DNA of 24,580 nucleotides from Fidelibacterota bacterium (GCA_043822705.1 JBDRBK010000053.1:1-24580); one strand, 5' to 3'. Numbered from the stretch's first letter, positions 1 to 24,580 are shown. Numbers and translations: made by a program. Notes: generated by a model not told the origin, from the sequence alone.

Positions 1-28
1 CATCATCTGGTTTGCCCTGACCCAATGA
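1..28 (+). CDS. 3' end of an upstream CDS (partial, ...IIWFALTQ*)
   Basis: Frame from base 2 reads ATC ATC TGG TTT GCC CTG ACC CAA TGA. The stop (26-28) overlaps the ATG at 25 as ATGA, typical of translational coupling. Only 8 sense codons are visible. Confidence 0.4.
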
Positions 29-3000
29 TCGCTCCCATCGCCCGGCACCTGCGTAATTTCCGGCACGCCGCCCTGAAAACCGACCTGCAGGCACTGGCCT
101 GGTTTGGCTACAGTCTGGCGCTGATGACCACCCTGATCGCGCTGCTGACCGAAAGTGTTTTCTATCTGAGTCCCGGCCTGCGCTTCGGCGCCTGGAAAGC
201 CGGCCTGTTTCTGCTGCTGATCGCGGTCGCCGCCGGACTGGTCCTGGCCGTGCTGATTGCGCTTAACCGGGTCCGACGCTACCGCCCCACCGTGCTGGCC
301 CGGAAGATCGGAGGACTGGTCTTTCCCAAAACCGACACGGTCATCAACGCCCTGCAACTGGAACGCACCCTCGGCGGCAGCAGCGCCCCGGCCCTGTCGC
401 GGGCCTTCATCGACCAGGTCGATTCAACCTTGCAAGCTCTCGATCCAGATACGGTTTTCCCCCGGCAGCAACTACAGCGCTGGAAGCTAACCACCCTCCT
501 GCTGCAAATCGGCTTCGTTCTGACATTATTCCTTTTCTGGACCCCCACCACTTCCGCGATTTATCGCTGGGCCCATCCCCATAGTGAATTCCCGGTGCCG
601 AAACCGTTCCACCTGCTCAGTCACAGCCAGGATATCAGCATTCTGGGGGGCGAAAACATCGAAATCAGTATCCAGAGCATCGGCGCCAGCCCCGATTCCG
701 TCACGCTGGAACTGGTTCCCACCACCGTGCTGGCCGGCGATACTAACCTGACCCGAACCGCACCAGTGCTGCACCGTGTCGCGGCTCAGTCGCCGGGGGT
801 CTATGTGCTGAACCTGACCGAGGTTTACCAGGATTATCGCTACCGGGCTTTCGTGCCGGCCCGGCATTTCTGGCAATCCTGGAAAGAAGTCAGCTCCGCC
901 ACCCACCGGATATCGGTGACCGACCGGCCGGCTTTCGTGGATTTCACGATCACCGTGATTCCGCCGCGCTACACCGGATTGAAAGCCAGTTTCCAGAAAG
1001 GCAACCAGGCCAGCGTGCAGGGCCTGCGCGGATCGACGGTGAGCCTGAACCTGATAGCCAACCGGCCCCTCTCCGGCGGCTTCATCAGTCTCAACGACAA
1101 GCCGCTGCCGCTGACGGTGCGCGGCCGCCGGGCCGAAGGCCAGTTCAACCTGCGTGCGGACGGAATCTTCTCGGTCCATATCAGCGACCGCCGGGGCATC
1201 GCCAACCGCGAGCCGATCAAATACCATTTGCAGATGATTCCCGACCTGCCGCCCGACCTGAAAGTCATCCGGCCAGCGCCGGTGGTGGAACTGGGCGAGG
1301 ATCAGATTCTGCCGCTGCACCTGTCGATCAGCGACGATTTCGGTTTTTCCAAGCTCCAGGTCGGTTATGAAGTCCGTCGCCCGGCCTTCGCCGCCGCCGA
1401 ACCCTACACCGCCATTTTCGCCATCAGCGAAATCGCTCCCGCCACGCCCTCGCAGGAGGTATTTTCAATCTGGGATTTGACTGATCTGGATTTATTTCCG
1501 GAAGACGAGGTTCACTACCATTTCGAACTCTACGACAACGATGACGTCTCGGGACCGAAAAAATCAGTTTCCGCCAATTTTATCGCCCGGCTGCCGTCGC
1601 TGGCCGATCTGTTTGAAAAACTGGAACAGGGCGAAGCCGACCTGTCGCAGGAGCTCGAACTGGAAGCGGACGACCTGGAAATCCTGAACGACAAGCTGGA
1701 GCAGGCCCAACTGGAATTGCTGAAGCGCGAGGATATCAATTGGGAACAACAGCAGGCGCTGCGGGAATCGCTGGAAGAAGCCCGCGAAAAAGTCGAACAG
1801 ATGAAGAATTTTTCCGAAGCGCTGGACCAGTTGGCGGAGTCGGCCGAAAAACACGGTCTCTTCTCCGAGGATATGCTGGAAAAATTCCGCCAGTTGCAGG
1901 AGCTGATAGCGGAACTAATTTCACCGGAGCTGCTGGCCAGCATGGATCGCCTGAGCGAGGCGCTGGATCAGCTCGATCCCCAAGAACTATTGTCGGCAAT
2001 GGAACAATTATCGGCCAATCTGAACCAGATGGAGCAGCAACTGGACCGTTTCCTGGCGATCTTCGAGCGCATCCGGGCCGAGCAGAAAATGGAGGAAATC
2101 CGCGAACGGCTGGAACAGTTGGTCGAACAACAGGCCGGTCTGGATGAGAAAATTCAGCGCGCCGGTCCGGAAACGGAGCCGTCGGACCTGGCCCGGATGG
2201 CCCAGGAAGAACAGCGTAACAGCGAAGAATTCGATCACATCCGTGGGGTTATGGAGCAGGCCGCCGACGCCGTGGAAAAATTCAGCCCGCCGCTGGCCGC
2301 GGAACTGGACCAGTTAAGTCAATCGCAACTGGTCCAAGACGCCGCCGGGGCGCTGAAAAACGCCGGCAATAGCCTGCGGCAGCAGCAGCCCGCCGCTGCC
2401 GGTGGTCAAAGCCGGCAAGCCCTGGCCGACCTGGAACAACTACAGGGCCAATTCGGCGATCTGCAGCAGCGGTTCCAGCAGCAGGAAGTGCGTGCGATGA
2501 CCGACAAATTCCGGGCAGTACTGCGCGACCTGCTGACCGTCTCCAAGTCGCAGGAAAATCTGCAATCGGCCAGCAGTGAATTATCGCGCAACTCGCCGCG
2601 CCTGGGTGAAATGGCCAACCGGCAGCAACTGTTGCAGGACCAGTTGCGTCAGATCATGGGTCAGTTGCTGGATCTGTCCCGCGAGACCTTCGCCGTCTCG
2701 CCCGAGATCGGCCAGGCCGTGGGTATGGCCCATGCCCAGATGCAGGAAGCATCCGGCAGTCTGGAGCAGCGTGACGGGTCCGGCGCCGGTAACCGGCAGC
2801 GGGCCGCCATGGAAGCGCTCAACCGGGCCTCGCTGGCCGTCATTCAGGCCATGCGGGACATGGAGGCAGGCGGTTCCGCCAGTGGTTTCGAGCAATTCCT
2901 GCAGCGCATGCAACAGATGAGCGGTCAGCAGCAGGGCATCAATAACCAGGGCCTGCAACTGGCCCTGGGACAGATGGCGGCCTCAGCCCAACAGGCCTTG

Positions 3001-3450
3001 ATGAAACGGATGCTGCAGGAACAGCAGCAGGTCCGCAAATCGCTGCAGCAATTAATGGATGAAATGCAACAGTCCGGCCGTCAGGGCCTGGGCGATCTGG
3101 GCGGCATCGCCGGCGAAATGGACGAGGTGCTCAAGGACCTGCAGCGTCAGCGCTATACGCGCCAGACCCAGCAGCGCCAGGAGCGAATACTGACCAGGAT
3201 GCTGGACAGCCAGCGTTCCCTGACCCAGCGCGATTACAAGAAAGAACGCACTTCCCGGGCAGCCGAAGCGGCGGTCTTCTCCGGTCCCGGCGGACTGCCG
3301 GCCGATCTGGGCCAGCGCCGCAGCCTGGCGCTGGAAGCGCTGAACCGCGCCCTGAAATCCGGATATCCCCGGGATTATCAGAACATGATCCGGCGCTACT
3401 TTGACACCCTGAGCCAGGACAAGACCCTGGTAACCGAGGAAGCGAAATGA
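25..3450 (+). CDS. DUF4175-like large membrane-anchored coiled-coil protein
   Basis: 1141 aa ORF with about 3 N-terminal TM helices, a beta-rich middle region containing 'SDDFGFSKL' and 'YHFELYDNDDVSGPK', a long Q/E-rich coiled coil, and a C-terminal 'YPRDYQNMIRRYF' motif. This matches my recollection of DUF4175/TIGR02302-like proteins. Confidence 0.7.
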   Translation: MIAPIARHLRNFRHAALKTDLQALAWFGYSLALMTTLIALLTESVFYLSPGLRFGAWKAGLFLLLIAVAAGLVLAVLIALNRVRRYRPTVLARKIGGLVFPKTDTVINALQLERTLGGSSAPALSRAFIDQVDSTLQALDPDTVFPRQQLQRWKLTTLLLQIGFVLTLFLFWTPTTSAIYRWAHPHSEFPVPKPFHLLSHSQDISILGGENIEISIQSIGASPDSVTLELVPTTVLAGDTNLTRTAPVLHRVAAQSPGVYVLNLTEVYQDYRYRAFVPARHFWQSWKEVSSATHRISVTDRPAFVDFTITVIPPRYTGLKASFQKGNQASVQGLRGSTVSLNLIANRPLSGGFISLNDKPLPLTVRGRRAEGQFNLRADGIFSVHISDRRGIANREPIKYHLQMIPDLPPDLKVIRPAPVVELGEDQILPLHLSISDDFGFSKLQVGYEVRRPAFAAAEPYTAIFAISEIAPATPSQEVFSIWDLTDLDLFPEDEVHYHFELYDNDDVSGPKKSVSANFIARLPSLADLFEKLEQGEADLSQELELEADDLEILNDKLEQAQLELLKREDINWEQQQALRESLEEAREKVEQMKNFSEALDQLAESAEKHGLFSEDMLEKFRQLQELIAELISPELLASMDRLSEALDQLDPQELLSAMEQLSANLNQMEQQLDRFLAIFERIRAEQKMEEIRERLEQLVEQQAGLDEKIQRAGPETEPSDLARMAQEEQRNSEEFDHIRGVMEQAADAVEKFSPPLAAELDQLSQSQLVQDAAGALKNAGNSLRQQQPAAAGGQSRQALADLEQLQGQFGDLQQRFQQQEVRAMTDKFRAVLRDLLTVSKSQENLQSASSELSRNSPRLGEMANRQQLLQDQLRQIMGQLLDLSRETFAVSPEIGQAVGMAHAQMQEASGSLEQRDGSGAGNRQRAAMEALNRASLAVIQAMRDMEAGGSASGFEQFLQRMQQMSGQQQGINNQGLQLALGQMAASAQQALMKRMLQEQQQVRKSLQQLMDEMQQSGRQGLGDLGGIAGEMDEVLKDLQRQRYTRQTQQRQERILTRMLDSQRSLTQRDYKKERTSRAAEAAVFSGPGGLPADLGQRRSLALEALNRALKSGYPRDYQNMIRRYFDTLSQDKTLVTEEAK

Positions 3451-5348
3451 GGCGGCGCTCCATCTGGTTGGTGCTGGCCCTGCTGCTGACCGGTCTGCCG
3501 GGACAGGTCCGGGTCGTGCCCATGGGCGCGGCGGCACTGGAAGAAGCTCAGGTGCTGGAACGGCGCGGCGACGTGGAAGCCGCGCGGGAAATCTACCGCG
3601 ACATTCTGGCCGGCAATCCCCGCCACCACCAGGCCTACCAGAATCTGAAGAACAGTCTGGTAGCCGGCGGCGAACTGGACGAGGCGATACAACTGGTCAA
3701 TACCTACCTGGAGAATGCTCCCATGGACCTGAACGCCCGGATCGAGCTGGGCGAATTATACTTCCGCCGGAACGACAAGGAACAGGCTTTCCGGATCTGG
3801 AAAGCGCTGGAGGCGCAGTTAAGCAGCAACCAGAATTTTTACCGCACCCTGATATTCACTTTCGCCCGCCTGTCGCTGCCGGAAGAGATGGAAGCACTGG
3901 CCGACCGGGCCCGCACGCAATTCAACGATGCCGCCTTCCTGGCCATTGATCTGGCCAATTATTATCATTCCCGGGGTGCCGTTGACCGCGCCGTCGATGA
4001 ATTTCTCAATCATCTATTGACCCAGCCGCGGCAACTCAAATACGTGACCGACCGGATTCTGCTGCTGAGCGACGAACCGGAAAACCAGACCGTCATTGAA
4101 AATCGATTACTGACGCGGTTGCCGGAAGATGAACTGCTAGTGCGCCAGGTTCTGGCCGGTTTCTATTTCAAGATACGCCGTTTTGACGACGCAGTCGAGC
4201 AGCACCGGCTGATGGGCCTGAACACCCCGGATGATTTTATCCGCTGGCTGGAGCTGGCCCGCAACCTGCGCCTGGAACGGGAATTCGGGTCCGCCCTGGC
4301 CGCCTACCAGACCCTGCTCCAGAGCGACCTGCAAAAACAGTTACCGGTGCGAGTGGCCGGTGAAGCACTGTTGGGCATGGGCCAGTGCTTCGAGGAACAG
4401 ATCGTTCCCGATGACGCCCATGAACCACTGGTGCGGTTTTTCCCCGATAACCAGATTTTTGCCAGCCACTTTTACGGTGCCCCGGAAATATCGACCGTCC
4501 CGCTGGAGCATTCCTTCCGGCTGTACGATTCGATCCTGGTGGAATTGCCAAAATCCGGGTTTCTGGCCCAGGCGCATTTCCGGATCGGCGAGATCAGGTA
4601 CCGCATCACCCGTGATTTCGACGGCGCGCTCCAGTCCTACCAGGCGGCGCTGGCGGCCCGTCCCGACAATGATTTGCGGCAGGCGTTGCTGCTACGGCTG
4701 GGAGATGTGCAACTGGCCAAAGGCGCGCTGCCGGCCGCCCAGGAACATTTCCTGAAAAACCTCGAAGCGGCGGGGACCGATGAGGCCGCCAATCCATTCC
4801 TGCTGCGGCTGATCCAGACCAACCTTCTGGCCGGCGATGTGGAATCGGCCCTGACCCTGATCGAAACGACGATCGCGGAAACACAGCCGACCCACGCTAA
4901 TTTCAACGACCTGCTGGAAGTCCAGAACCTGATCGCCACCTACTACAGCAACACCAGCGAAAACGACCGGGCCGCCTTCCAGATTTTCCTGCAGGCCGAA
5001 AACCTGATTCGGCAGAATAAACTGAGTCAGGGCGCCCAACTGCTGCAGGCCCTGCGCCGGGAGCAACCGAATCTGGCGCTGATTCCACTGGTCACGTTGC
5101 GGCTGGCGCTGTTGACGGCCCTGACCAGCGATATTACTGCGGCGGTGGATCTGGCCCTGGCCCTGGCCGGGACCGAACTGGCCGACCAGGGGCTGGCGCT
5201 GGCCGGTGAAATCCATGAAATCCGTGCTCACCAACCGGATACGGCCTTAATTTATTACCATCGCGTTCTGGAAGAATACCCGCGCTCGATTCTGGCCGAG
5301 CCGGTGCGTTTTCATATCCGGGCGCTGAATCAGAAACTTGGGAGCTGA
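3447..5348 (+). CDS. Exported tetratricopeptide-repeat protein
   Basis: 633 aa. Signal-peptide-like N-terminus (MRRRSIWLVLALLLTG), several TPR-like helices (ARIELGELYFRRNDKEQA; AQAHFRIGEIRYRITRDFDGALQSY) and C-terminal 'YYHRVLEEYPRSILA'. ATGA overlap with the upstream gene and a GAGGA RBS. Confidence 0.8.
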   Translation: MRRRSIWLVLALLLTGLPGQVRVVPMGAAALEEAQVLERRGDVEAAREIYRDILAGNPRHHQAYQNLKNSLVAGGELDEAIQLVNTYLENAPMDLNARIELGELYFRRNDKEQAFRIWKALEAQLSSNQNFYRTLIFTFARLSLPEEMEALADRARTQFNDAAFLAIDLANYYHSRGAVDRAVDEFLNHLLTQPRQLKYVTDRILLLSDEPENQTVIENRLLTRLPEDELLVRQVLAGFYFKIRRFDDAVEQHRLMGLNTPDDFIRWLELARNLRLEREFGSALAAYQTLLQSDLQKQLPVRVAGEALLGMGQCFEEQIVPDDAHEPLVRFFPDNQIFASHFYGAPEISTVPLEHSFRLYDSILVELPKSGFLAQAHFRIGEIRYRITRDFDGALQSYQAALAARPDNDLRQALLLRLGDVQLAKGALPAAQEHFLKNLEAAGTDEAANPFLLRLIQTNLLAGDVESALTLIETTIAETQPTHANFNDLLEVQNLIATYYSNTSENDRAAFQIFLQAENLIRQNKLSQGAQLLQALRREQPNLALIPLVTLRLALLTALTSDITAAVDLALALAGTELADQGLALAGEIHEIRAHQPDTALIYYHRVLEEYPRSILAEPVRFHIRALNQKLGS

Positions 5349-5349
5349 A

Positions 5350-6600
5350 GTGAACAGACTGATCACCTTGCTGCTGCTGTTGAACCTGGCCGGGGCGCAA
5401 AAATTGCTGATCCCCATGGACCAGGTCCAGAAGGACCACCTGAAAGCCTACGGCATCACTTTCTGGATTCTGGAACAGGATATTAACGTGGAATGGCTGC
5501 TCAATTATCGCGGCGGATCGTTCCTGGTCGATTCCTACGATATGATCCAGCAGGAATGCCGGGTCCGGGGCGTCACCTTCGAAACCGCCGATCCCCAGGC
5601 CGTGCTGGCCGTTTACGGCACGATCGAAAACAATAATATGGACATCGTCCTGCTGGAAAAGGCGCCGCGGATCGCCATTTATTCACCACCCAACAAACAA
5701 CCCTGGGATGACGCCGTTACGCTGGCCCTGACCTATGCCGAAGTACCTTACGATGTGCTCTGGGATGTAGAAGTCCTGGCCGGCAAACTGGACAACTACG
5801 ACTGGCTGCACCTGCATCACGAAGACTTCACCGGGCAGTACGGCAAATTCTACCGCAATTACGCCAGCGCCACCTGGTACATCGAGCAGCAACGGGAATT
5901 CGAGGCCCTGGCCCTGCGGCTGGGTTACAATTCCGTGCACGCCGAGAAAAAGGCGGTTGCTTTCGCCATCCGTAATTATGTCGGGCAGGGCGGTTTTCTG
6001 TTCGCCATGTGTTCCGCCACCGATTCCTACGATATCGCCCTGGCCATGGGCGAAGTCGACGGGGTCGAGATCGTTTACGACAACACGCCCGCCGACCCGC
6101 AGTTACAAAAAAAGCTGGACTACAAACGCACCTTCGCCTTCACCGATTTTACCGTGATCACCGATCCGCTGGTATATGAATATTCCGACATCGATTACCC
6201 ACCAAGCAATAATCCGGTGACCCGCGGCGCCGAGCGCGATTATTTCACCCTGTTCGAGTTCTCCGCCAAGTACGACCCGGTGCCGACCATGCTGACCCAG
6301 AATCACGTGGCGGCCGTCAAGGGTTTCATGGGCCAGACCACCGGTTACCGGCGTCCGCTGGTCAAGAAGCATATCGTCATCATGGGCGAAGATCCGGCCA
6401 GCGAGCAGGTCAAGTACCTGCATGGCAATTTCGGTCAGGGCACGTTCACTTTTCTCGGCGGCCATGACCCGGAGGATTACCAGCATTTCGTCGGCGATCC
6501 GGCCACCGACCTGTCGCTGCACCGCAATTCCCCCGGCTATCGCCTGATTCTCAACAACATCCTGTTCCCCGCCGCCCGTAAGAAAGAGCGCAAGACCTGA
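5350..6600 (+). CDS. Conserved secreted protein with class I glutamine amidotransferase-like fold (family often labelled 'asparagine synthetase B' in FCB genomes)
   Basis: Start moved to GTG 5350 because GGAG lies at 5341-5344 and the TPR gene stops at 5348. Signal peptide-like MNRLITLLLLLNLAGAQ. Motifs 'HLKAYG', 'PWDDAVTLALTYAEVPY', 'DWLHLHHEDFTGQYGKFY', 'GGFLFAMCSATD' and 'GGHDPEDY'. Confidence 0.75.
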   Translation: MNRLITLLLLLNLAGAQKLLIPMDQVQKDHLKAYGITFWILEQDINVEWLLNYRGGSFLVDSYDMIQQECRVRGVTFETADPQAVLAVYGTIENNNMDIVLLEKAPRIAIYSPPNKQPWDDAVTLALTYAEVPYDVLWDVEVLAGKLDNYDWLHLHHEDFTGQYGKFYRNYASATWYIEQQREFEALALRLGYNSVHAEKKAVAFAIRNYVGQGGFLFAMCSATDSYDIALAMGEVDGVEIVYDNTPADPQLQKKLDYKRTFAFTDFTVITDPLVYEYSDIDYPPSNNPVTRGAERDYFTLFEFSAKYDPVPTMLTQNHVAAVKGFMGQTTGYRRPLVKKHIVIMGEDPASEQVKYLHGNFGQGTFTFLGGHDPEDYQHFVGDPATDLSLHRNSPGYRLILNNILFPAARKKERKT

Positions 6601-14296: not shown

Positions 14297-15544
14297 TTAG
14301 AGATTATCAATGATCGCCGAAGCATACTCCGATGTTTTCAACGGTTTCGTATCGCCCATCAGCCGCGCCAGATCGTAGGTAACTTTTTTCTGCTGAATGG
14401 TTTTCCCCACTGCCGCCACTATTACATCGGCCGCGGCCTGCCAGCGCAGGTGCTCCAGCATCATTACACCGGAGAGCAGGACTGAACTAGGGTTGACCTT
14501 ATCCTGGTTGGCGTACTTGGGGGCCGTGCCGTGGGTGGCTTCGAACAGGGCCACGCGGTCGCCGATATTGGCGCCGGGAGCCAGTCCCAGCCCGCCGACC
14601 TGGGCGGCACAGGCATCGGACAGGTAATCGCCGTTCAGGTTGGGCGTGGCGATCACGTCGTATTCGTCGGTCCGGGTCAGAATCTGCTGCAGCATCGAAT
14701 CGGCGATCCGGTCCTTGATCACAATTTTGCCAGCGGGAATTTTACCGTCGTAGTTTGACCACAGCTCATCTTCGGTGATCGTCCGGTCCGGGAATTCCTC
14801 CCGAGCCACGGCGTAGCCCCAGTCGCGGAAGGCGCCTTCCGTGAATTTCATGATATTACCCTTGTGCACCAGGGTCACCGATTCGCGGTCATGATCAATG
14901 GCGTACTGGATCGCCATCCGCACCAGCCGTTTGGTGGCGGTGACGCTGATCGGCTTGATACCGATGCCGGAATCACTGCGAATAGTCGTACCAAAAGTAT
15001 CGTTCAGGAAGTTGATCACTTTTTTCGCCTCCGCCGATCCTTCGCGCCATTCGATCCCGGCGTAAACGTCTTCGGTATTTTCGCGGAAAATCACCACGTC
15101 CATTTTTTCCGGCTCCCGCACCGGCGAGGGAACGCCGGCGAAATAAGTCACCGGCCGCACACAGGCATAGAGGTCCATCAACTGGCGCAGCGATACGTTG
15201 AGGCTACGGAAACCGCCGCCCACCGGCGTGGTCAGGGGACCCTTCAGGGCCACATGGTAATACTCGATCGCCGCTATTGTCTCGTCCGGCAGATAATTGC
15301 CGTCGTAGCGGGCGGCGGCGCTTTCACCGGCATAGATATCCATCCAAGCGATTTTTTTCAACCCGGCATAGCTTTTAGCGACCGCCGCGTCCAGCACCCG
15401 CCGGGTGGCGCGCATGATGTCGGGACCGATCCCGTCGCCTTCGATCACGGGAATTATCGGATGGATCGGAACAACCAGGTTATCACCATCCCAAGTAATA
15501 CGTTGCCCGTCAGCGGGAATTTTAATTCTGGTAAATGTTTTCAT
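14297..15544 (-). CDS. icd: Isocitrate dehydrogenase (NADP+), homodimeric E. coli type
   Basis: 'EGDGIGPDI', '[17 protein letters not shown]', '[13 protein letters not shown]', 'NLNGDYLSD'. '[11 protein letters not shown]' and 'TYDLAR' carry the NADP-specificity residues K, Y, Y and R. Confidence 0.97.
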
Positions 15545-15547
15545 AAG

Positions 15548-17794
15548 TCAGACCTGTCTTTTTTGGGCGATAAAATTCAAAGCGCTGCCGGCTTTGAACC
15601 ATTCGATCTGCCGCTGGTTGTAAGTATGTTTCAGTTTAATACTCTCCGTCGTGCTATCGGGGTGGCTGACCTTGAGCGTCAGTTGGCTGCCTGGGGCAAA
15701 TTTGGTGAGGCCGGTTATGCCGACCCTGTCGTCGGGACGGATACGGTCGTAGTCCGCCGGATCGGCGAAAGTCAAAGCCAGCAGCCCCTGCTTTTTCAGA
15801 TTGGTTTCATGGATACGGGCAAAACTTTTCACGATGATCGCCCGACCGCCTAGGTGCCGCGGTTCCATGGCGGCGTGTTCGCGACTGGAGCCCTCACCGT
15901 AATTTTCCTCGCCGACCACCACCCAACCGATGCCGCGATCATGGTAACTGCGGGCGACGGCGGAGATGCCATCGACCTGTCCGGTCAACTGGTTGCGGGT
16001 CCGGCCGGCATCACCAGTCTCGGCATTGACGGCGCCGAGGAACAGATTATCGGAGATATTGTCCAAATGGCCTCGGAAGCGCAGCCAGGGCCCGGCCATT
16101 GAAATATGGTCGGTGGTGCATTTCCCCCGTACTTTCACCAGTACCGTCAGATCGCTCAGGTTATGTCCGTCCCAGGCCGGGAAGGGCGTCAGGGCCTGCA
16201 ACCGCTTACTGTAGGCGCCGATCTGAATCGTCGCATCGCCGCCATCAGCCGGTGGTCGAATCAAGCCGCTTTCGCCTCGGTTAAAGCCGTCCGGTGGCAA
16301 TTCATTACCCCGCGGCGGTTTCAGCTTGATCCGCTGGCCTTGCTCATTTTCAATTTCATCGGTAAGCGGATTGAATGACAGCCTTCCGGCAATCGCCAGG
16401 GCGGTCACCAGCTCGGGGCTGCTTACAAAAGCCAGGGTGTTGGGATTGCCGTCATTGCGGCGGGCAAAATTGCGGTTATAGGAGGTGACGATCGTGTTGC
16501 GTTCTGCTTTTTCGGCGCCGACCCGCTGCCACATTCCGATGCACGGGCCACAGGCATTAGCCAGGACCGTGCCACCGAATTCCCGCAGAATCTCCATATG
16601 GCCGTACTGTTCCATTGTGGCGCGAATCTGTTCCGATCCGGGCGTGATGTAAAATTCGGTTTTCGCCTTCAATCCCTGATCCAACGCCTGGCGCACGATA
16701 CTGACGCAGCGCTCGATATCCTCGAAACTGGAGTTGGTACAACTGCCGATCAATCCGGCGCTGACCCGGTCGGGGAAATCTTCGCTGGCGACCGCCGCTT
16801 TCATGCCGGATACGGGCCAGGCGCGGTCGGGTGTGAATGGACCGTTCAGATGCGGCTCCAGTTGGTCGAGGTCGATTTCGATCACCTGATCATAGTATTT
16901 TTCCGGGTCAGCCAGCACTTCCTGGTCGGCGGTCAGATAATCATGCATATCGGCCGTAATATCCGCAATCGGATTGCGGCCGGTGGCGCGCAAGTATGTT
17001 TCCATCCGTGTGTCATAGGGAAATACCGAAGTGGTTGCCCCGATTTCGGCGCCCATATTACAGATCGTAGCTTTACCGGTGGCCGAGATCGAATGTGTTC
17101 CTTCACCGAAATATTCAACAATGTACCCCGTGCCGCCCTTGACCGACACCAGTCCCGCTAGCTTCAGTATCACGTCTTTGGGGGCGGTCCAGCCGGATAA
17201 TTTGCCGGTCAGCTTTACACCCAGCACTTTCGGCCATAACAATTCCCAGGGCATACCGACCATCACGTCGACGGCATCGGCGCCGCCGACTCCGATCGCC
17301 AGCATTCCCAGCCCGCCGCCATTGACGGTATGGGAGTCGGTGCCGATCACCAGGGCACCGGGAAAGGCATAATTCTCCAGCACCACCTGATGAATGATGC
17401 CGGCACCCGGTTTCCAGAAATCCAGACCGTATTTCTGTGAAACACTTTCCAGAAACCGGTATACCTCGTCATTTTGGTCCAGTGCTTCCTGCAGGTCGGC
17501 GGCGGCGCCGACCCGGGCCTGAATCAGGTGATCGCAGTGGACCGAAGACGGCACCGCCACCCGGTCACGGCCGGCGACAATGAATTGCAACAGCGCCATC
17601 TGGGCGGTGGCATCCTGCATGGCCACCCGGTCGGGTCGCAGTTCGGCATAATCCCGGCCGCCGGCAATTTCAGCTGTCGCACCGTGGAAGAGATGGGTAT
17701 ACAGGATTTTTTCACTTAACGTAAGCGACCGCCGGATGATTCCGCGAACGGCATCCAGGTTTTTCCTGTAGTTGTCGTAAAATTCCTGATTCAT
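15548..17794 (-). CDS. acnA: Aconitate hydratase, short mitochondrial-like type
   Basis: 748 aa. '[13 protein letters not shown]', 'HCDHLI', 'KPGAGIIHQ', Fe-S ligands 'IGSCTNSS' and 'NACGPCIG', 'KCTTDHIS', '[11 protein letters not shown]'. GGGAG RBS. Confidence 0.95.
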
Positions 17795-17865
17795 ATCAGC
17801 TCCCTAAAACCCGGATCAATCTTCCGGTTTCGGTTCAAATTCGATTCCCCGTGCATAGCGCCCGG

Positions 17866-19569
17866 TCAGGCGATATGCTGAGCATTCTTGAAAAAGTCAG
17901 CCATTTTCCGATCGACGGTGCGAACATGGGCGGTGAAATGATCCACCAGCATTTGCTTGACCAGAATGACCAGCCGGGTGGTGCCGCCTTTTTCCTTGAA
18001 TTCGTCCCGCAATGAGCAGCACAGTTCCTTGAATTCCTCGTGCTGGCGCTTGTGCTCCTCGTATTCCGGATAATTGTATTTTTCCATGTAATGTTCTTCC
18101 AGCGAAAGGTGCTTCTTTACATAATCCTCCAGGAAGCTAAACAATTCATGGATTTTATGGTCGGCCTTGCCGGTGTGGTAGGCTTCAATCAGCAGTTTAA
18201 GATGTTCCACCAGCGCCCGGTGATCATTATCGATCTCAAAAATACCCACCGACAGACTGTCGTCCCAGTTCAGGGCCAATCCTTCCAGATATTCGGTGGT
18301 GACCGATTTGGGTCGTTCCAGCGAAGCACCTAGCAGGCGCGCCCAGATATACCACGCCAAAACACCCTGAGCGCGGGAAACACCGAATAATACCGTATAG
18401 AAGTCGAATTCCTTAATACCATAGTGATAAAGCACACTTCCGGAATGGGCATCCACATTGGGCCAGGGATTCTTGGCTTTGCCATGAATACGTAATATAT
18501 CGGGAACTACCTCATATAGGTTTGAGACAATTTTAAATAGTTCATCATCGGGAAAATGTTGTAATGCAAATTCCCGCAAAGCGGTATAACGAGGGTCGGT
18601 TTTACGCAATACAGCATGTCCAAAACCAGGAATTAGTCTTCCGGCATTCAAAGTGTCCCAGACATATTTCTCAATTTCCTTCTTGGTTGGTGTATGATTA
18701 CCGATTTCCTGACGCATTTTTTCGATCCAGTGCAAAACCTGTTGGTTCGCCATGCCGTGCAGTGGCCCTGCCAAACCATTTAGTCCCGCCGAGAAGGCAT
18801 AGAAGGGATCGGACAGGGTTGAACCGACCAATTGGACCGTATGGGCGGTTACATTGCCGCCTTCATGATCAGCATGCAGAAACAGAAACAGGCGCATAAT
18901 TTCATATACTTCTTTATCCTTAATACCCATCATGTAAGCCAGGTTAGCGGCCCAGTCTAAATCGGGGTGCGGATCAATCCGTATGCCATCCTTATAGGTA
19001 CGACGATAAATATAGGCTGCAATTGTTGGCAGTTTCGCCAAGATACTAAGACTGTCTTCCAGGGCGGGCTCCCATAAGTCCTTACGGACCATTCCTTTTC
19101 GAAATTGCCGGGAAAACTCCGATGTTCCCTGCAATGTCAGCAATGCCAGAGATAATTGCGTCATGGGTGATAATTCTTTGGGTAAATTATCCAGTGTTGT
19201 AAAAACATATTCAGGGACTTCACTATATTTTTTATATTCGTTCTGAATGTCTTGTACGTCATCTTCAGTGGGAAGATTTCCGGTCAGCAATAAATAAAAC
19301 AGACCCTCGGGCAGTGGCTGACTACCTCCTTTAACCGAAGGTAACAGCTCTATTAATTCCGGCAGGCTATAACCTCGGTAGCGAATTCCTTCATCGGGAT
19401 CAAGCATGGAAGTTTCGCAGATCATACTTTTTACACCCCGCGTACCGCTGTAAATCTGTGCAATCGAGACATCCGACACTTTTACATCGCCATAATTGGT
19501 GACCAGATGATTAATTCGGTTTTTCATTGGATCTACCAGCCTGGTCAATTTCTCTTTGAAAGTAGGCAT
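17866..19569 (-). CDS. gltA: Eukaryote-type (Si)-citrate synthase with C-terminal bacteriohemerythrin domain
   Basis: aa 1-~430: 'LDPDEGIRYRG', 'LHADHEGGNV', 'GLAGPLHG' (H271), 'IPGFGHAVLRKTDPRY' (H318), 'NPWPNVDAHSG' (D373), 'ERPKSVTT'. aa 434-567: hemerythrin with H450, H487/E491, H506/H510, H548/D553. AGGAGG RBS at 19574-19579. Confidence 0.93.
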   Translation of the reverse strand: MPTFKEKLTRLVDPMKNRINHLVTNYGDVKVSDVSIAQIYSGTRGVKSMICETSMLDPDEGIRYRGYSLPELIELLPSVKGGSQPLPEGLFYLLLTGNLPTEDDVQDIQNEYKKYSEVPEYVFTTLDNLPKELSPMTQLSLALLTLQGTSEFSRQFRKGMVRKDLWEPALEDSLSILAKLPTIAAYIYRRTYKDGIRIDPHPDLDWAANLAYMMGIKDKEVYEIMRLFLFLHADHEGGNVTAHTVQLVGSTLSDPFYAFSAGLNGLAGPLHGMANQQVLHWIEKMRQEIGNHTPTKKEIEKYVWDTLNAGRLIPGFGHAVLRKTDPRYTALREFALQHFPDDELFKIVSNLYEVVPDILRIHGKAKNPWPNVDAHSGSVLYHYGIKEFDFYTVLFGVSRAQGVLAWYIWARLLGASLERPKSVTTEYLEGLALNWDDSLSVGIFEIDNDHRALVEHLKLLIEAYHTGKADHKIHELFSFLEDYVKKHLSLEEHYMEKYNYPEYEEHKRQHEEFKELCCSLRDEFKEKGGTTRLVILVKQMLVDHFTAHVRTVDRKMADFFKNAQHIA

Positions 19570-19762
19570 TCTTCCTCCTATTCTGTTAAAGTATAGATGG
19601 TGTTTACACCAAATCCGTTACACAGTCTTTAAAATTAAACCGATAAGCGAAATGAAACGGATTCTGGTCCCCCCGGTCGAAATTACTAATTTATTGATTG
19701 ATAAAACATATGGTTCCTGAAAATTTTTCTGGCCAAGTGGCAAATAATAATCATATAATCAC

Positions 19763-19851: not shown

Positions 19852-21546
19852 CTACTGCTTCTTCGCCAGTTCTTCGGCCCGCAGTTCCTTGCGCAACACT
19901 TTGCCGACCGCCGATTTAGGCAAGTCAGAACGGAATTCGACCTCCACCGGCCACTTGTATTTAGCCAGCTTGTCGTGGCAGAATTCCAGCATTTCTTCGG
20001 CGCTGGCGGTCTGGCCTTCCTTGAGAACGATGAATACCTTGGCCGATTCGCCCCGTTTGGGGTGGGGTATACCGATCGAACAGGCTTCCATCACTTTGGG
20101 ATGCTCGTAATAGACTTCGTCAATTTCCCGCGGGTAGACATTGAACCCGCCGGAAATGATCATATCCTTCTTGCGGTCAACGATGAAAAAGTAGCCGTCC
20201 TCATCCATAGTGGCGATATCGCCGGTAAAAAGCCAGCCGTCCCGCAGTGTTTCGGCGGTGGCCTCCGGACGGTTATGGTACCCGACCATGACCTGCGGAC
20301 CGCGCATGATCAGCTCTCCGGATTCACCGACCGGCATTTCCTTCAAACCGGTATCCAGATCGACGATCCGGCACTCGGTATCGGGAATCGGTACGCCGAC
20401 ACTGCCGATCTTGCGCTCACCGCCGGCGAAGGGATTGATATGCGTCACCGGGCAGGATTCGGTCAGGCCGAAACCCTCCACGATCACGGCGCCGGTGGTC
20501 TTTTCGAATTCCTGGATCACTTCCACCGGTAGCGGGGCGCTGCCCGAGAAGCAGCCGTTGATGCAGGTCATGTCCACCTTGCCGGCTTTGGGATGATTGA
20601 GGATGCCGATATACATCGTCGGCACCATCGGTGCGAAGGTCGGCCGGAATTTGGCAATCGCCTCCAACAGGGCCTCCGGTTGCGGCTTGGGAATTAATAT
20701 ATTTGTCCAGCCGTAATAGATCGCGAAATTCATCGAAGTGGTCAGGCCGAACACATGGAAAAACGGCAGGGCGCCCAGCATGATTTCCTCGCCGGGATTG
20801 AACTGCGGGAACCAGGAGGCGATCTGCTGGACCTGCTTGCTCATATTGCCGTGGGTCAGGATCACGCCCTTGGAAACGCCGGTGGTGCCGCCGGTATACT
20901 GGTAATTGATCGGATCGTCAAAACTGACCGGTGTATTGTCGTGCAACGGTTCGTATAGCGCCAGCAACTCCTTCCAGCGATAGACATCAGCCGCCTCTTT
21001 TACGTCCGCTGCCAGCTTCTTTTTCTTGCCTACCAGGGGAAACAGCAGCGATTTCGGGAACGGCAGGTAATCACCGATGGACGTATAGATAATCTGTTTT
21101 ATGGTCGTTTTCGGCCGCAGGTCGATCATCCGGTTGCCCAGCAGATCCAGGGTTATCAGGACTTTGGAATTGGAGTCGTTGAACTGGTGCTCCAGTTCCC
21201 GGTCGGAATAGAGCGGATTGTTCATTACCGTCACCGCTCCGATCCGCATGATGGCATAGTAGGCGGCGGCGGCGGGAATCAGGTTGGGCAGGACAATTGC
21301 GACGCTGTCACCTTTCTTGACACCGAAATCGGTCAGGACGGCGGCCAGCCGGCCCACCATTTCATCCAGCTCCTTGAAAGACAGCTTGAAGCCCTGGAAA
21401 ATCAGGGCCGTGCGGTCGGGAAACCGGTCAACGGTTTCTTTGAAGAAATCGGGCAGTGCGACTTCCCGGTAGTCCAGGACCGGCGGGACGCCGGGCTCGT
21501 AATTCTTTAACCACGGTTTCTGGGCATACTCGATCTGTGAACTCAT
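19852..21546 (-). CDS. fadD: Long-chain fatty acid--CoA ligase
   Basis: AMP-binding motifs 'YQYTGGTTGVSKG', 'EGFGLTE', 'TGDIATMDEDGYFFIVDRKKDMII', 'GKVLR'. Start moved to ATG 21546 because GGAGGT RBS lies at 21551-21556. Confidence 0.92.
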   Translation of the reverse strand: MSSQIEYAQKPWLKNYEPGVPPVLDYREVALPDFFKETVDRFPDRTALIFQGFKLSFKELDEMVGRLAAVLTDFGVKKGDSVAIVLPNLIPAAAAYYAIMRIGAVTVMNNPLYSDRELEHQFNDSNSKVLITLDLLGNRMIDLRPKTTIKQIIYTSIGDYLPFPKSLLFPLVGKKKKLAADVKEAADVYRWKELLALYEPLHDNTPVSFDDPINYQYTGGTTGVSKGVILTHGNMSKQVQQIASWFPQFNPGEEIMLGALPFFHVFGLTTSMNFAIYYGWTNILIPKPQPEALLEAIAKFRPTFAPMVPTMYIGILNHPKAGKVDMTCINGCFSGSAPLPVEVIQEFEKTTGAVIVEGFGLTESCPVTHINPFAGGERKIGSVGVPIPDTECRIVDLDTGLKEMPVGESGELIMRGPQVMVGYHNRPEATAETLRDGWLFTGDIATMDEDGYFFIVDRKKDMIISGGFNVYPREIDEVYYEHPKVMEACSIGIPHPKRGESAKVFIVLKEGQTASAEEMLEFCHDKLAKYKWPVEVEFRSDLPKSAVGKVLRKELRAEELAKKQ

Positions 21547-21795
21547 TGATACCTCCCCAATTGATTTAGGTTGCAACAGTTCCGATTTTAATGTTAAGTG
21601 TTTGATTAGTCTAACTATGTACGGCATATTTAGCAAATGAAAAAAAACAGGCTACCACGATTTATTCCAATGCGTCTAAAACTTGTCGCCAGAACTCCAC
21701 GTGGATAACTTCCGCCCGTATAACTGCGACTATATCGAAAAATACGGAACAGGTCTAATCCACCCTATCTTTAATCAATTAACCATGAGAAAGCT

Positions 21796-23325
21796 ATGTC
21801 AGAAATTACCCGACGAGAATTCGTCAAGGTATCCGGCTCCGGTCTGGCGCTGGCATCATTGTCGGGGATTTTACCCGGCGTGATGGGCTGCGCCTCCAGC
21901 AAGACCGCGGCGGCCACCTTGACTTTCGAACGCTTCGGCATCGACACGGAGACGATCCGCAAAGTTCTGGCCGAAGCGTTGATCTACGGCGGCGATTTCG
22001 CCGATATATTCTTTGAGAATTCCATTTCCAACTCGATCCGCCTGGAAGACAATATCGTCAACTCCGCCAGTACCACAATTACCCTGGGCGTCGGTATCCG
22101 GGTGTTGAAGGGCGACCAGACCGGTTATTCATTTACCGAAGATCTTTCGCTGGAAAGCATGCAGGCCGCCGCCCGTACCGCCGCCAATATTGCTTCCGGA
22201 ACCAAAAAAGTGCCGCCGCAGGAATACCGGCCGCTGGTCCTGCCGAATTATTACCCCGTGGAACTGTCCTGGGAGCAGGTGGGCATCGACCGGCGCGTCA
22301 ATATAGTCAAAGCCCTGGATGAGGCGACATTCGCCCGGGATTCCCGGATCATCAAAAACTACGTCGGGTTCCATGATACTGAAAAATATATTCTGGTGGC
22401 CAATTCCGAAGGACAACTGACCAGCGATTACCAACCTCTGCTGCGAGTCGGCGTTTCCTGTACCGCCGAACAGAACGGCCAGCGTGAGACCGGCTGGTTC
22501 GATTATTCCATGCGTGACGACATCGACTTCCTGACACCGGAACGACTGGAACGGCTCCCGCGGGAAGCGGTCCGGCGGACGGTTATACTGTTCGATGCCA
22601 AACCAGCCCCCGCCGGCGAGCTGCCGGTGGTCATGACGCCGGGAAGTTCGGGAATCCTCCTGCACGAGGCCATCGGCCACGGCATGGAAGCCGATTACAA
22701 CCGGATCAATTCGTCGGTCTATGCCGACAAGCTGAATAAACCGATCGCGCCCGAATTCATTAATATCGTCGACAGCGGACTCAATCCCAATCTGCGCGGC
22801 TCGCTTAATGTGGACGATGAGTGCTCGCCCACGGAAGAGACTGTTCTGGTGGAAAACGGGATTCTGAAAACCTACCTGCACGACCGGATATCCGCTCAAC
22901 ACTACAGCGTCCGGTCGACCGGCAGCGGACGGCGCGAATCGTTCAAACACTATCCCCGGCCGCGGATGCGCAATACCTACATGCTGAACGGCCCGCACAC
23001 CCGCGATGAAATCATCGCCAGCGTCAAGTACGGCATCGTGGCCGATGATTTCACCAACGGCCAGGTCAATATCGGACCCGGCGATTTCACTTTTTACGTG
23101 AAATCAGGGTCGCTGATCGAAAACGGGAAAATCACCGCCCCGATCAAGGATGTCAACATCATCGGCAACGGACCGGAAGTCCTGGAAAAGGTGACCATGG
23201 TCGGCAACGATCTGGCCATGGCCGAGGGCGGCTGGATCTGCGGCAAGGGCGGCCAGTCGGTGCCAGTGTCGCACGGACTGCCAAGCGTCTTGGTTTCATC
23301 GATAACAGTCGGTGGAAGGGGGTAA
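21796..23325 (+). CDS. tldD: TldD metalloprotease subunit with N-terminal Tat signal
   Basis: 'GDFADIFFE', metal motif 'LLHEAIGHGMEAD', 'PRMRNTY', C-terminal 'CGKGGQSVPV'. N-terminus 'TRREFVK' is followed by a hydrophobic stretch and 'VMGC'. Confidence 0.92.
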   Translation: MSEITRREFVKVSGSGLALASLSGILPGVMGCASSKTAAATLTFERFGIDTETIRKVLAEALIYGGDFADIFFENSISNSIRLEDNIVNSASTTITLGVGIRVLKGDQTGYSFTEDLSLESMQAAARTAANIASGTKKVPPQEYRPLVLPNYYPVELSWEQVGIDRRVNIVKALDEATFARDSRIIKNYVGFHDTEKYILVANSEGQLTSDYQPLLRVGVSCTAEQNGQRETGWFDYSMRDDIDFLTPERLERLPREAVRRTVILFDAKPAPAGELPVVMTPGSSGILLHEAIGHGMEADYNRINSSVYADKLNKPIAPEFINIVDSGLNPNLRGSLNVDDECSPTEETVLVENGILKTYLHDRISAQHYSVRSTGSGRRESFKHYPRPRMRNTYMLNGPHTRDEIIASVKYGIVADDFTNGQVNIGPGDFTFYVKSGSLIENGKITAPIKDVNIIGNGPEVLEKVTMVGNDLAMAEGGWICGKGGQSVPVSHGLPSVLVSSITVGGRG

Positions 23326-23328
23326 CTC

Positions 23329-24580
23329 ATGAATAAAATCGAATTAGCCCAATGGGTTCAGGATAATGCCCGCCAGCAGGGCGCCGGCGATAGTTCAGTG
23401 ATCATCAGCAACAGCCGTTCGATCGATATCGAATACCGCGACGGCAACATCGACAAACTAAAAGAATCGACGGAACAGTCACTGGCCATCGAGCTATTTG
23501 CCGAAGGTAGATACTCCACCCACACTACCAACGATCTGCGCCAGCCGGCCCTGATGAAATTCATCGCCAATGCCCTGGCTATGACCCGCTACCTGAGCGA
23601 GGACCCCTTCCAGGCGCTGCCCGACCCTAAGTTGTATGAAGGCCGCCCGGAAGCCGACCTGGAATTGTTCGATCGGAATTACCCGGCGGTCGAAACCCGC
23701 CAACGCGTCGATATCGCCCGGCAGATGTACGATCACATCCGCCACAAGGATGACCGCATCGTTTCGGTGACCTCCTATTTCAGCGATTCCCATAATGAAA
23801 ATGTGCATCTGAAATCAAACGGCTTTCTGGGTACCTACGAAAGCTCCTGGTTTGGGGCCGGCGCCGAGGTGGCGCTGGATGACGGCACCGGCAAGAAACC
23901 CCAGAGCTGGCAGTACCTGGTGGCCCGCCACCTGCAGGACCTGCCGGACTTCAACCAGATCGCTGCTGAAGCGTTGCAGCGCACCCAGGATTCCGTCGGG
24001 CAGTCCAAAATCGCCAGTGCCAGTATGCCGATGATCCTGCAGAATGACCAGGTCCGGGGACTGGTCGGTCGGATCTGGAGCGCCCTCAAGGGTGGCAATA
24101 TCCAGCAGAAGGAATCCTTTCTGGATGGCAAGCTGGGCAGCAAAATCGGTTCGGAACTGTTAACTATCGTGGATGACCCGACCGTCATTCGCGGCCTCGG
24201 CAGCCGTTATTACGATGGCGACGGCATTGCCGCCAAGGTAATGCCGGTGATCGAAAAAGGCGTACTCAGTAACTACTATATCGATGTCTATTACGGCCGC
24301 AAACTGGGTATGGCGCCGACGACCGGCGGTTCCAGCAATGTCACATTCGCACTGGGAAAGCGCTCCGGCACTGAAATCGAGCGCGATATTGACCGGGCGA
24401 TCCTGGTGACCGGCTTCCTGGGCGGCAATACCAACGATACCACCGGTGATTATTCCCTGGGCGTTTCGGGCTGGCTGATCGAAAACGGCCGGCGCACCAA
24501 GCCGATCAATGAGATGAATATCTCCGGTAATTTCACCGACCTGTTGAATCAACTGGTGGAAGTCGGCAACGATCCCTTCC
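23329..24580 (+). CDS. pmbA: PmbA/TldE subunit (partial, runs off the window)
   Basis: Missing from the ORF track because it has no stop in the window. Manual translation from ATG 23329 stays open to the end: MNKIELAQW...'SFLDGKLGSKIGSELLTIVDDP...GSRYYDGDG...IEKGVL...GGNTNDTTGDYSLGVSGWLIENG...ISGN'. No HExxxH motif, as expected for PmbA. Confidence 0.9.
   Translation, partial: MNKIELAQWVQDNARQQGAGDSSVIISNSRSIDIEYRDGNIDKLKESTEQSLAIELFAEGRYSTHTTNDLRQPALMKFIANALAMTRYLSEDPFQALPDPKLYEGRPEADLELFDRNYPAVETRQRVDIARQMYDHIRHKDDRIVSVTSYFSDSHNENVHLKSNGFLGTYESSWFGAGAEVALDDGTGKKPQSWQYLVARHLQDLPDFNQIAAEALQRTQDSVGQSKIASASMPMILQNDQVRGLVGRIWSALKGGNIQQKESFLDGKLGSKIGSELLTIVDDPTVIRGLGSRYYDGDGIAAKVMPVIEKGVLSNYYIDVYYGRKLGMAPTTGGSSNVTFALGKRSGTEIERDIDRAILVTGFLGGNTNDTTGDYSLGVSGWLIENGRRTKPINEMNISGNFTDLLNQLVEVGNDPF

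Follow-up and report, generated by a model that had tools for sequence, protein, structure and literature searches.

The stretch of DNA analysed here, referred to as the window, is the whole of a 24,580-nucleotide sequence from a Fidelibacterota bacterium (GCA_043822705.1 JBDRBK010000053.1:1-24580). The gene of interest lies on its minus strand and encodes a citrate synthase (CS) joined to a bacteriohemerythrin (Hr) domain; gene and product are both called CS-Hr in the following. The features located within the gene are these, where 2AVK is the structure of the Hr domain of DcrH, and X2 and X3 are two DNA sequencing runs:

17866..19569, minus strand: the CS-Hr fusion gene, 567 codons plus stop; an uninterrupted open reading frame (ORF), of the same length and without insertions or deletions in 7/7 species of the family.
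18274..19569, minus strand: citrate (Si)-synthase domain of eukaryote type, residues 1-432; from profile matches, with catalytic H271, H318 and D373, and R419 in an ERPKS motif.
18265..18285, minus strand: the junction, residues 429-435 (EGLALNW); from alignment with unfused relatives, and bridged by contigs of X2 and X3.
17866..18273, minus strand: bacteriohemerythrin domain, residues 433-567; from profiles, the 2AVK alignment and structure models.
18220..18222, minus strand: iron ligand H450, assigned by 2AVK alignment and conservation.
18097..18111, minus strand: ligands H487 and E491 (HxxxE), with L488 between them, assigned in the same way.
18040..18054, minus strand: ligands H506 and H510 (HxxxH), likewise.
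17911..17940, minus strand: H544, followed by ligands H548 and D553 (HxxxxD), likewise.

The gene starts with an ATG codon that has an AGGAGG site 5 nt upstream. In the 567-aa protein, two Pfam domains are found above the gathering score, namely Citrate_synt at residues 42-421 (PF00285, E 7e-99, 331.6 bits with a cut-off of 27) and Hemerythrin at residues 442-552 (PF01814, E 9e-12, 46 bits with a cut-off of 25.3). The Hr domain is covalently joined to the CS in a single ORF, as in the Hr-domain transducers. A previous sequence-only reading of the window had described one uninterrupted 567-aa ORF composed of a eukaryote-type citrate synthase (residues 1 to about 430), with H271, H318 and D373 intact, and of a complete bacteriohemerythrin domain carrying seven di-iron ligands in canonical spacing. 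This description has been borne out in all these parts by the profile matches, alignments and conservation given here, and only the domain boundary had to be corrected: the signature does mark a hemerythrin domain, but the W of WDDSLSVG is residue 435 and not 434. In the alignment, the equivalent of residues 431-434 is the C-terminal end of the unfused CS relatives, and residue 435 is the conserved Hr Trp (the corresponding W4 is nearly invariant in stand-alone hemerythrins); therefore, the linker between both domains has at most about 5 residues. R419, in the ERPKS motif, precedes the start of the Hr domain by 16 residues.

The CS part is recognised by NCBIfam as a citrate (Si)-synthase (NF007128, 587 bits, cut-off 344), while the score for the "eukaryotic CS" equivalog TIGR01793 (593 bits) is slightly under its cut-off of 619.75. 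The catalytic H271, H318 and D373 and the substrate arginines R327, R399 and R419 are invariant in 12/12 aligned sequences and align with residues of 8XXD, the best solved relative, the first three with its catalytic His/His/Asp; we take these three to correspond to the catalytic H274, H320 and D375 of pig CS. Similarly, R419 is presumably the homologue of pig R421, which reaches the active site (citrate/oxaloacetate) of the partner subunit. Six CS positions are common to 12/12 fused sequences and occur in less than 5% of 110 unfused ones (C51, L139, F228, F230, Y427, and L431), and two of them, Y427 and L431, immediately precede the junction. The best explanation for these features is that CS-Hr encodes a working citrate (Si)-synthase; it is predicted to be an active homodimer, for which its position as the sole CS found in the genome is an indirect indication only.

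With regard to the Hr domain, the two bacteriohemerythrin models of NCBIfam are matched above their cut-offs (NF033749, 94.8 bits, cut-off 84; TIGR02481, 94.9 bits, cut-off 51.75). H450, H487, E491, H506, H510, H548 and D553, which follow the pattern H, HxxxE, HxxxH, HxxxxD, are invariant in 12/12 fused sequences and align one to one with residues of 2AVK (E 9e-11) that we take to be the iron ligands of DcrH-Hr. When modelled alone (99 aligned sequences), the domain is a four-helix bundle with a pLDDT of 93.8; in the full-length model, the four helices cover residues 444-465, 469-497, 503-527, and 531-562. In a Foldseek search with the model of the domain, the top 14 matches were all hemerythrins. 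Structurally closest are DcrH-Hr, which is the best solved match (TM 0.82-0.85, rmsd 1.9-2.2 Å, identity 25-26%), and the hemerythrins of invertebrates. The RIC/YtfE family is not among the 25 NCBIfam matches listed, and ScdA_N is absent from the Pfam matches, which are only Citrate_synt and Hemerythrin. The profiles and the model thus support a domain of the O2-binding or sensor type, which would be expected to load iron and to react with O2.

The Hr domain was also used for an exhaustive HMMER search, in which 13,766 matches had E <= 0.001. The protein of the window was the sole fused representative among them, and the matches ranking next were 24-40% identical. Among the 150 nearest Hr relatives, about 35 are longer than 300 aa, and 29 of these were scanned. 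Each of the 29 is either a signalling protein (chemoreceptor, HD-GYP, GGDEF-EAL, cyclase, kinase, SpoIIE phosphatase or PAS/GAF protein) or a tandem hemerythrin, and no metabolic enzyme was found among them.

Two positions beside the iron ligands differ from those of the stand-alone relatives. Directly after the second ligand His, L488 replaces a Phe present in 88/92 of them; and four residues before the sixth ligand, H544 replaces a Trp present in 90/92. Both replacements are fixed in 10/10 fused sequences of Marinimicrobia, while the fused clusters P0008 and P0009 keep W and F. The exchange of Trp for H544 and of Phe for L488 in the Marinimicrobia clade is a new observation of this analysis. 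From invertebrate hemerythrin structures, positions 488 and 544 are assumed to line the O2 pocket, and the hydrophobic Phe and Trp expected in this pocket of bacteriohemerythrins are not present in the CS-Hr of the window.

Several lines of evidence confirm that the fusion is real and not an assembly artefact. In a collection of 5.8 billion proteins, nine protein clusters (P0001-P0009) from four sources carry both Pfam domains at 55-100% identity, and the next matches are unfused CS of 431-441 aa at 60-63% identity. Full-length CS-Hr orthologues are present in six other species-level genomes (78-83% identity), and the seven genes have exactly 567 codons each and align without gaps. A word search with the Hr region (proteins of 311-993 aa) returned only the fused family, with 7 matches. 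At the DNA level, the junction is covered by two independent runs, both from one study: a 1233-nt contig of X2 spans 17863-18668 with 33 substitutions and no gap, and a contig of X3 spans 18209-18484; no insertions or deletions were reported for either. Thus, there was no sign near 18270-18290 of a masked stop or a chimeric join, either of which would have undone the description according to the sequence-only reading. Pieces of a further run, X1, which is possibly the source sample, are identical to the window and leave 17981-18439 uncovered. Finally, positions 18730-18905 are matched without a difference by one 176-nt contig of the RNA library X4, which is too little to claim transcription.

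The CS plus Hr architecture, in addition to being conserved in the nine clusters, was found in only one family among the genomes sampled from the phylum. Among 401 sampled genomes of the phylum, the full-length fusion was found in seven, all belonging to family f1 (Marinimicrobia): the genome of the window (G000) and six of the eight other f1 genomes. The two non-carriers, of genus g4, have unfused CS; in one of them, G003, the enzyme is 46% identical to that of the window, and in the other, G007, only two CS fragments were matched. The type of G003 recurs throughout the other members of the order (43-50% identity to the window's), and the unfused CS of other classes of the phylum show 56-62% identity. 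In a tree of the CS domain (57 rows; quick IQ-TREE with LG+G4, SH-aLRT only, no bootstraps), the nine fused proteins cluster in a single clade (SH-aLRT 99), of which P0008 and P0009 are the basal lineages, and the order's own CS, including that of G003, groups apart as a long-branch clade (support 100). This is most simply explained by one fusion event, after which the native CS was replaced in most of family f1. The GC content of the fusion gene is 0.46 versus 0.55-0.58 for the neighbouring genes of aconitase, isocitrate dehydrogenase (IDH) and FadD (GC3 0.49 versus 0.67-0.72), and it is also lower than that of the neighbours in all relatives checked, by 2-7 points; this fits a foreign origin without proving it.

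The ratio dN/dS of the Hr domain is 0.05-0.13 (5/21 pairs) versus 0.02-0.09 for the CS part (10/21 pairs), the values being restricted to pairs with unsaturated dS, as dS was saturated in most pairs; the low ratio of the Hr domain indicates, therefore, that it is maintained by selection. These data establish that the fusion is an old one, arose once and is subject to purifying selection. In 17/17 loci with unfused CS, there was no hemerythrin gene in the flanks inspected, which reached about 3 kb, or about 1.5 kb in five loci, and so a split-gene precursor arrangement was not found. A metagenome scan with P0008 gave 80 loci, all with unfused CS (best 69%). The only metagenome match reaching residue 468, locus L072, is a 434-aa unfused CS; beside this CS, at 9381-13994 of L072 (minus strand), there is an ORF of 1537 aa whose beginning resembles an acyl-CoA synthetase.

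In the genome of the window (93% complete, 6% contamination), CS-Hr is the only PF00285 match, and ATP-citrate lyase and citryl-CoA lyase were, therefore, not found; the drafts on which this and the other genome absences are based are 81-99% complete. Likewise, the six other carriers gave no CS-like match besides the fusion, except for a 34-residue fragment in G006. Since no other CS was found, any effect of the Hr domain would act on all citrate synthesis. G000 has one cytochrome bd oxidase and at least four POR_N-type 2-oxoacid:ferredoxin oxidoreductase genes; neither a heme-copper oxidase nor a 2-oxoglutarate dehydrogenase C-domain was found in it. High-affinity oxidases are present in 6/7 carriers, of the bd type in G000 and G006 and of the heme-copper type (COX1 family) in G002, G004, G005 and G008, and the latter was identified as cbb3 in G004 only. 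The enzyme set is what one would expect of a microaerobe in which trace O2 is respired and oxygen-labile enzymes are active at the same time. The cbb3 cluster of G004 (locus L114, G004:C26:6500-13600; ORFs 1922-4042, 4221-4997, and 5002-6420) encodes a fused CcoN/O (1279 bits), a CcoP-like protein and CcoG, is found together with a P-type heavy-metal ATPase, and lies about 10 kb from CS-Hr on the same contig. The only other hemerythrin of G000 is a stand-alone 143-aa bacteriohemerythrin (locus L116, G000:C211, 4325-4756, minus strand; NF033749, 127.6 bits). Its gene is directly downstream of that of a 746-aa protein (L116 4778-7018, minus strand), for which there was no NCBIfam match at E <= 1e-10.

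The genes and elements located around CS-Hr in the window are the following:

15548..17794, minus strand: mitochondrial-type aconitase, 71 nt downstream of CS-Hr (TIGR01340, 1113 bits).
14297..15544, minus strand: NADP isocitrate dehydrogenase, 3 nt after the aconitase gene; from profile matches.
19852..21636, minus strand: FadD-like acyl-CoA ligase, upstream of CS-Hr with a gap of 282 nt; kept in loci L018 and L019.
19680..19692, minus strand: AAATTAGTAATTT, an AT-rich near-palindromic motif lying upstream of CS-Hr, about 110 nt from its start codon; 11 invariant columns in 6/6 species.

The row formed by CS-Hr, aconitase and IDH is kept in 5/5 relatives with enough flanking sequence, and the terminator scan gave no minus-strand terminator between CS-Hr and aconitase. 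The FadD-like gene is probably a transcription unit of its own. As regards the region upstream of CS-Hr, the conserved motif AAATTAGTAATTT could be a promoter element or an operator; the remainder of the 200-300 nt leader is poorly conserved, except for a second block, TGTAAC, about 45 nt upstream. The scan for promoters and terminators was of little informative value (13 promoter-like sites versus 7.3 expected), and there were no Rfam matches in the window. A CS/aconitase/IDH neighbourhood recurs in other classes of the phylum, with a different gene order and aconitase. In the loci concerned, L024, L025, and L033, an unfused CS is found between an aconitase of another type (31% identical to that of the window) and IDH. 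Further away, window positions 21796-24579 (plus strand) contain two tandem genes for TldD/PmbA-family metallopeptidases, divergent from the FadD-like gene, a pair that is also conserved in L018 and L019. At the other end, positions 25-5348 (plus strand) encode a 1141-aa DUF4175 protein that overlaps a 633-aa TPR protein by 4 nt, followed by a 420-aa ORF with no Pfam match.

The best guess about the function of the fusion, with a probability of roughly 0.45, is that the Hr domain tunes the citrate synthase according to O2 or redox state. In such a mechanism, O2 or the redox status of the cell would shift the di-iron site of Hr between states (deoxy-ferrous on one side, oxy or met-ferric on the other), and the change of state would be relayed through the short junction to the C-terminal CS arm that bears R419; this residue, by homology with pig R421, would complete the citrate/oxaloacetate site of the partner subunit. 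The entry of acetyl-CoA into the cycle would then track the availability of electron acceptors in a microaerobic organism. Tuning by O2 or redox is rated the most likely reading because of the analogy with signalling Hr fusions and the rigid junction beside an active-site arm. It is supported by the intact catalytic and ligand residues, the good fit of the Hr model to DcrH-Hr, the low dN/dS of the Hr domain and the fixed gene length, the absence of a second CS among the matches, the linker of at most about 5 residues, the fusion-specific Y427 and L431, the signalling or tandem nature of the 29 scanned Hr relatives, and the high-affinity oxidases of 6/7 carriers. A stricter form of it, more tentative, would be a one-component post-translational O2/redox switch in which the di-iron site directly sets CS activity; it could even bias synthesis versus cleavage of citrate, because the nearest solved CS relatives are reversible synthases of roTCA, the oxidative tricarboxylic acid cycle when run backwards. 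With respect to the O2/NO-responsive gate suggested in the sequence-only reading, the architecture behind it is real and conserved and its Hr appears to be of the O2-binding/sensor type, but no observation points to NO specifically.

Several points weigh against tuning by O2 or redox. The presence of H544 instead of W and of L488 instead of F means that normal O2 binding is not to be assumed. The full-length AF2 model (12 sequences) is weak (pLDDT 71.6, pTM 0.67, with residues 416-431 under 50), and domain packing cannot, therefore, be read from it. In one of the carriers, G001 (87% complete), no oxidase was found. The 2-oxoacid:ferredoxin oxidoreductases and the adjoining aconitase fit a protective role equally well. 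Finally, iron loading, O2 reactivity and the coupling between Hr and CS, which could be of either sign, are what we infer.

The main rival, which is rated less likely, is that the Hr domain acts as a local O2 scavenger or shield protecting the oxygen-labile [4Fe-4S] aconitase and the 2-oxoacid:ferredoxin oxidoreductases, with unchanged CS kinetics; fusion to an abundant CS would then serve only dose and location. The at least four POR_N-type oxidoreductase genes of G000, where no 2-oxoglutarate dehydrogenase was found, are in agreement with this proposal, and so is the aconitase gene 71 nt downstream in a conserved row. There is also precedent, since HerA and HerB of Campylobacter jejuni are described in passages of PMC4257069 as guarding Por and Oor against O2 damage, and hemerythrin genes cluster with O2-tolerant por/oor according to parts of a preprint (10.64898/2026.09.02.748891). 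However, a stand-alone hemerythrin would suffice for this purpose, and G000 already has one; the near-zero linker, the invariant gene length and the fusion-specific CS residues by the junction are left unexplained; and one O2 per protein makes a small buffer.

A clearly less probable proposal concerns iron. The Hr domain might fold only when iron-loaded, so that CS follows the iron supply, or it might give iron to the cluster of aconitase. The hemerythrin of FBXL5 is a precedent for an iron gauge, and YtfE/RIC has been proposed as an iron donor. Citrate chelates iron, the next enzyme needs an Fe-S cluster, the order of CS-Hr and then aconitase is conserved, and a role of YtfE in the upkeep of aconitase and fumarase is quoted in passages of PMC4257069. 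Nevertheless, both its ligands and its best family match assign the domain to the O2-binding bacteriohemerythrin type (NF033749 above cut-off), the NCBIfam matches listed include no RIC/YtfE family and no ScdA_N domain was found, and the nearest structures are, again, DcrH-Hr and invertebrate hemerythrins. Even more doubtful is that H544 turns an O2 carrier into a reactive di-iron site that activates peroxide or O2, for example, as a peroxidase-like detoxifier. The fixation of H544 and L488 in 10/10 Marinimicrobia fused sequences, at positions that are Trp in 90/92 and Phe in 88/92 stand-alone relatives, would suit this idea; on the other hand, the basal P0008 and P0009 keep W and F, so it is not the reason why the fusion arose, and the engineered His of DcrH is at another position (I119, according to the title of 3WHN). 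The least credible explanation is a chimeric assembly, or else a neutral fusion in which one domain is decaying. In its favour, the G000 draft consists of 218 contigs and has 6% contamination, and the GC of the gene (0.46) departs from that of its neighbours (0.55-0.58). Against it, fused orthologues occur in six other genomes and in nine clusters from four sources, the junction is spanned by independent contigs, the genes around it show synteny with relatives, and the seven ligands are invariant with a dN/dS of about 0.1.

The known bacterial O2 control of the TCA cycle is exerted by transcription factors or by damage to Fe-S enzymes. If tuning by O2 or redox is true, a sensor attached to the only citrate synthase found would give O2 a direct and fast route into the Krebs cycle, and would be the first hemerythrin sensor with a central metabolic enzyme as its output. 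It would also be a good test system for the coupling between Hr domains and their partners, because CS has a colorimetric assay and well-known open and closed structures. In addition, the fusion may mark how this groundwater/biofilm lineage of Marinimicrobia, with its high-affinity oxidases and labile ferredoxin enzymes, copes with fluctuating low O2.

No description of a CS-Hr fusion was found in the published literature searched, in agreement with the earlier statement that no characterised fusion of a hemerythrin to a central carbon enzyme was known. In the main text of the Hr architecture survey PMC4919030, which lists 56 architectures in its Fig S2, the word "citrate" appears 0 times. Both domains belong to textbook families, and it is their combination that is apparently undescribed, though the sequences are public in draft genomes.

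Among known systems, the best solved matches to the CS part are the CS of Thermosulfidibacter takaii (8XXD) and Desulfurella acetivorans (8XU1, 8XU2, and 8XXC), with E values of 9e-165 and 1e-154 over residues 4-430; the organisms of these structures are as named in parts of a preprint (10.1101/2024.11.06.622199). These enzymes, as well as those of pig and human mitochondria, have the same catalytic residues as CS-Hr, but no C-terminal domain. The CS of T. takaii and D. acetivorans are known to be reversible (roTCA), whereas reversal in the CS-Hr organism is not indicated here. Another example is the HerA/HerB system of the microaerophile C. jejuni, whose enzymes include Por/Oor and an Fe-S aconitase; here, hemerythrins protect Fe-S enzymes linked to the TCA cycle (passages of PMC4257069); HerA and HerB are separate small proteins, in contrast to the hemerythrin of CS-Hr, which is fused to the enzyme. 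YtfE/RIC, also treated in passages of PMC4257069, has a hemerythrin-like di-iron fold linked to the upkeep of aconitase and fumarase, but differs from CS-Hr in family and ligand pattern, and no RIC model is among the CS-Hr matches listed. The closest likeness is that of DcrH-Hr, the best match in sequence and fold, which like the Hr of CS-Hr has seven ligands and is a C-terminal domain on a larger protein; a difference is that the Marinimicrobia clade has other residues in place of the pocket Trp and Phe, and the identity between the two domains is 25-26%. The mechanism by which the Hr domain of DcrH activates its partner domain is still unclear according to passages of PMC9388753, in which two characterised signalling Hr proteins are also described whose di-iron redox state switches the fused catalytic domain. 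Finally, in the Hr signal transducers (DcrH, Bhr-DGC, Bhr-HD-GYP) the output is an MCP, GGDEF, HD-GYP, kinase or cyclase; the partner in DcrH is thus a signalling module, whereas the partner in CS-Hr is a central metabolic enzyme, the citrate synthase.

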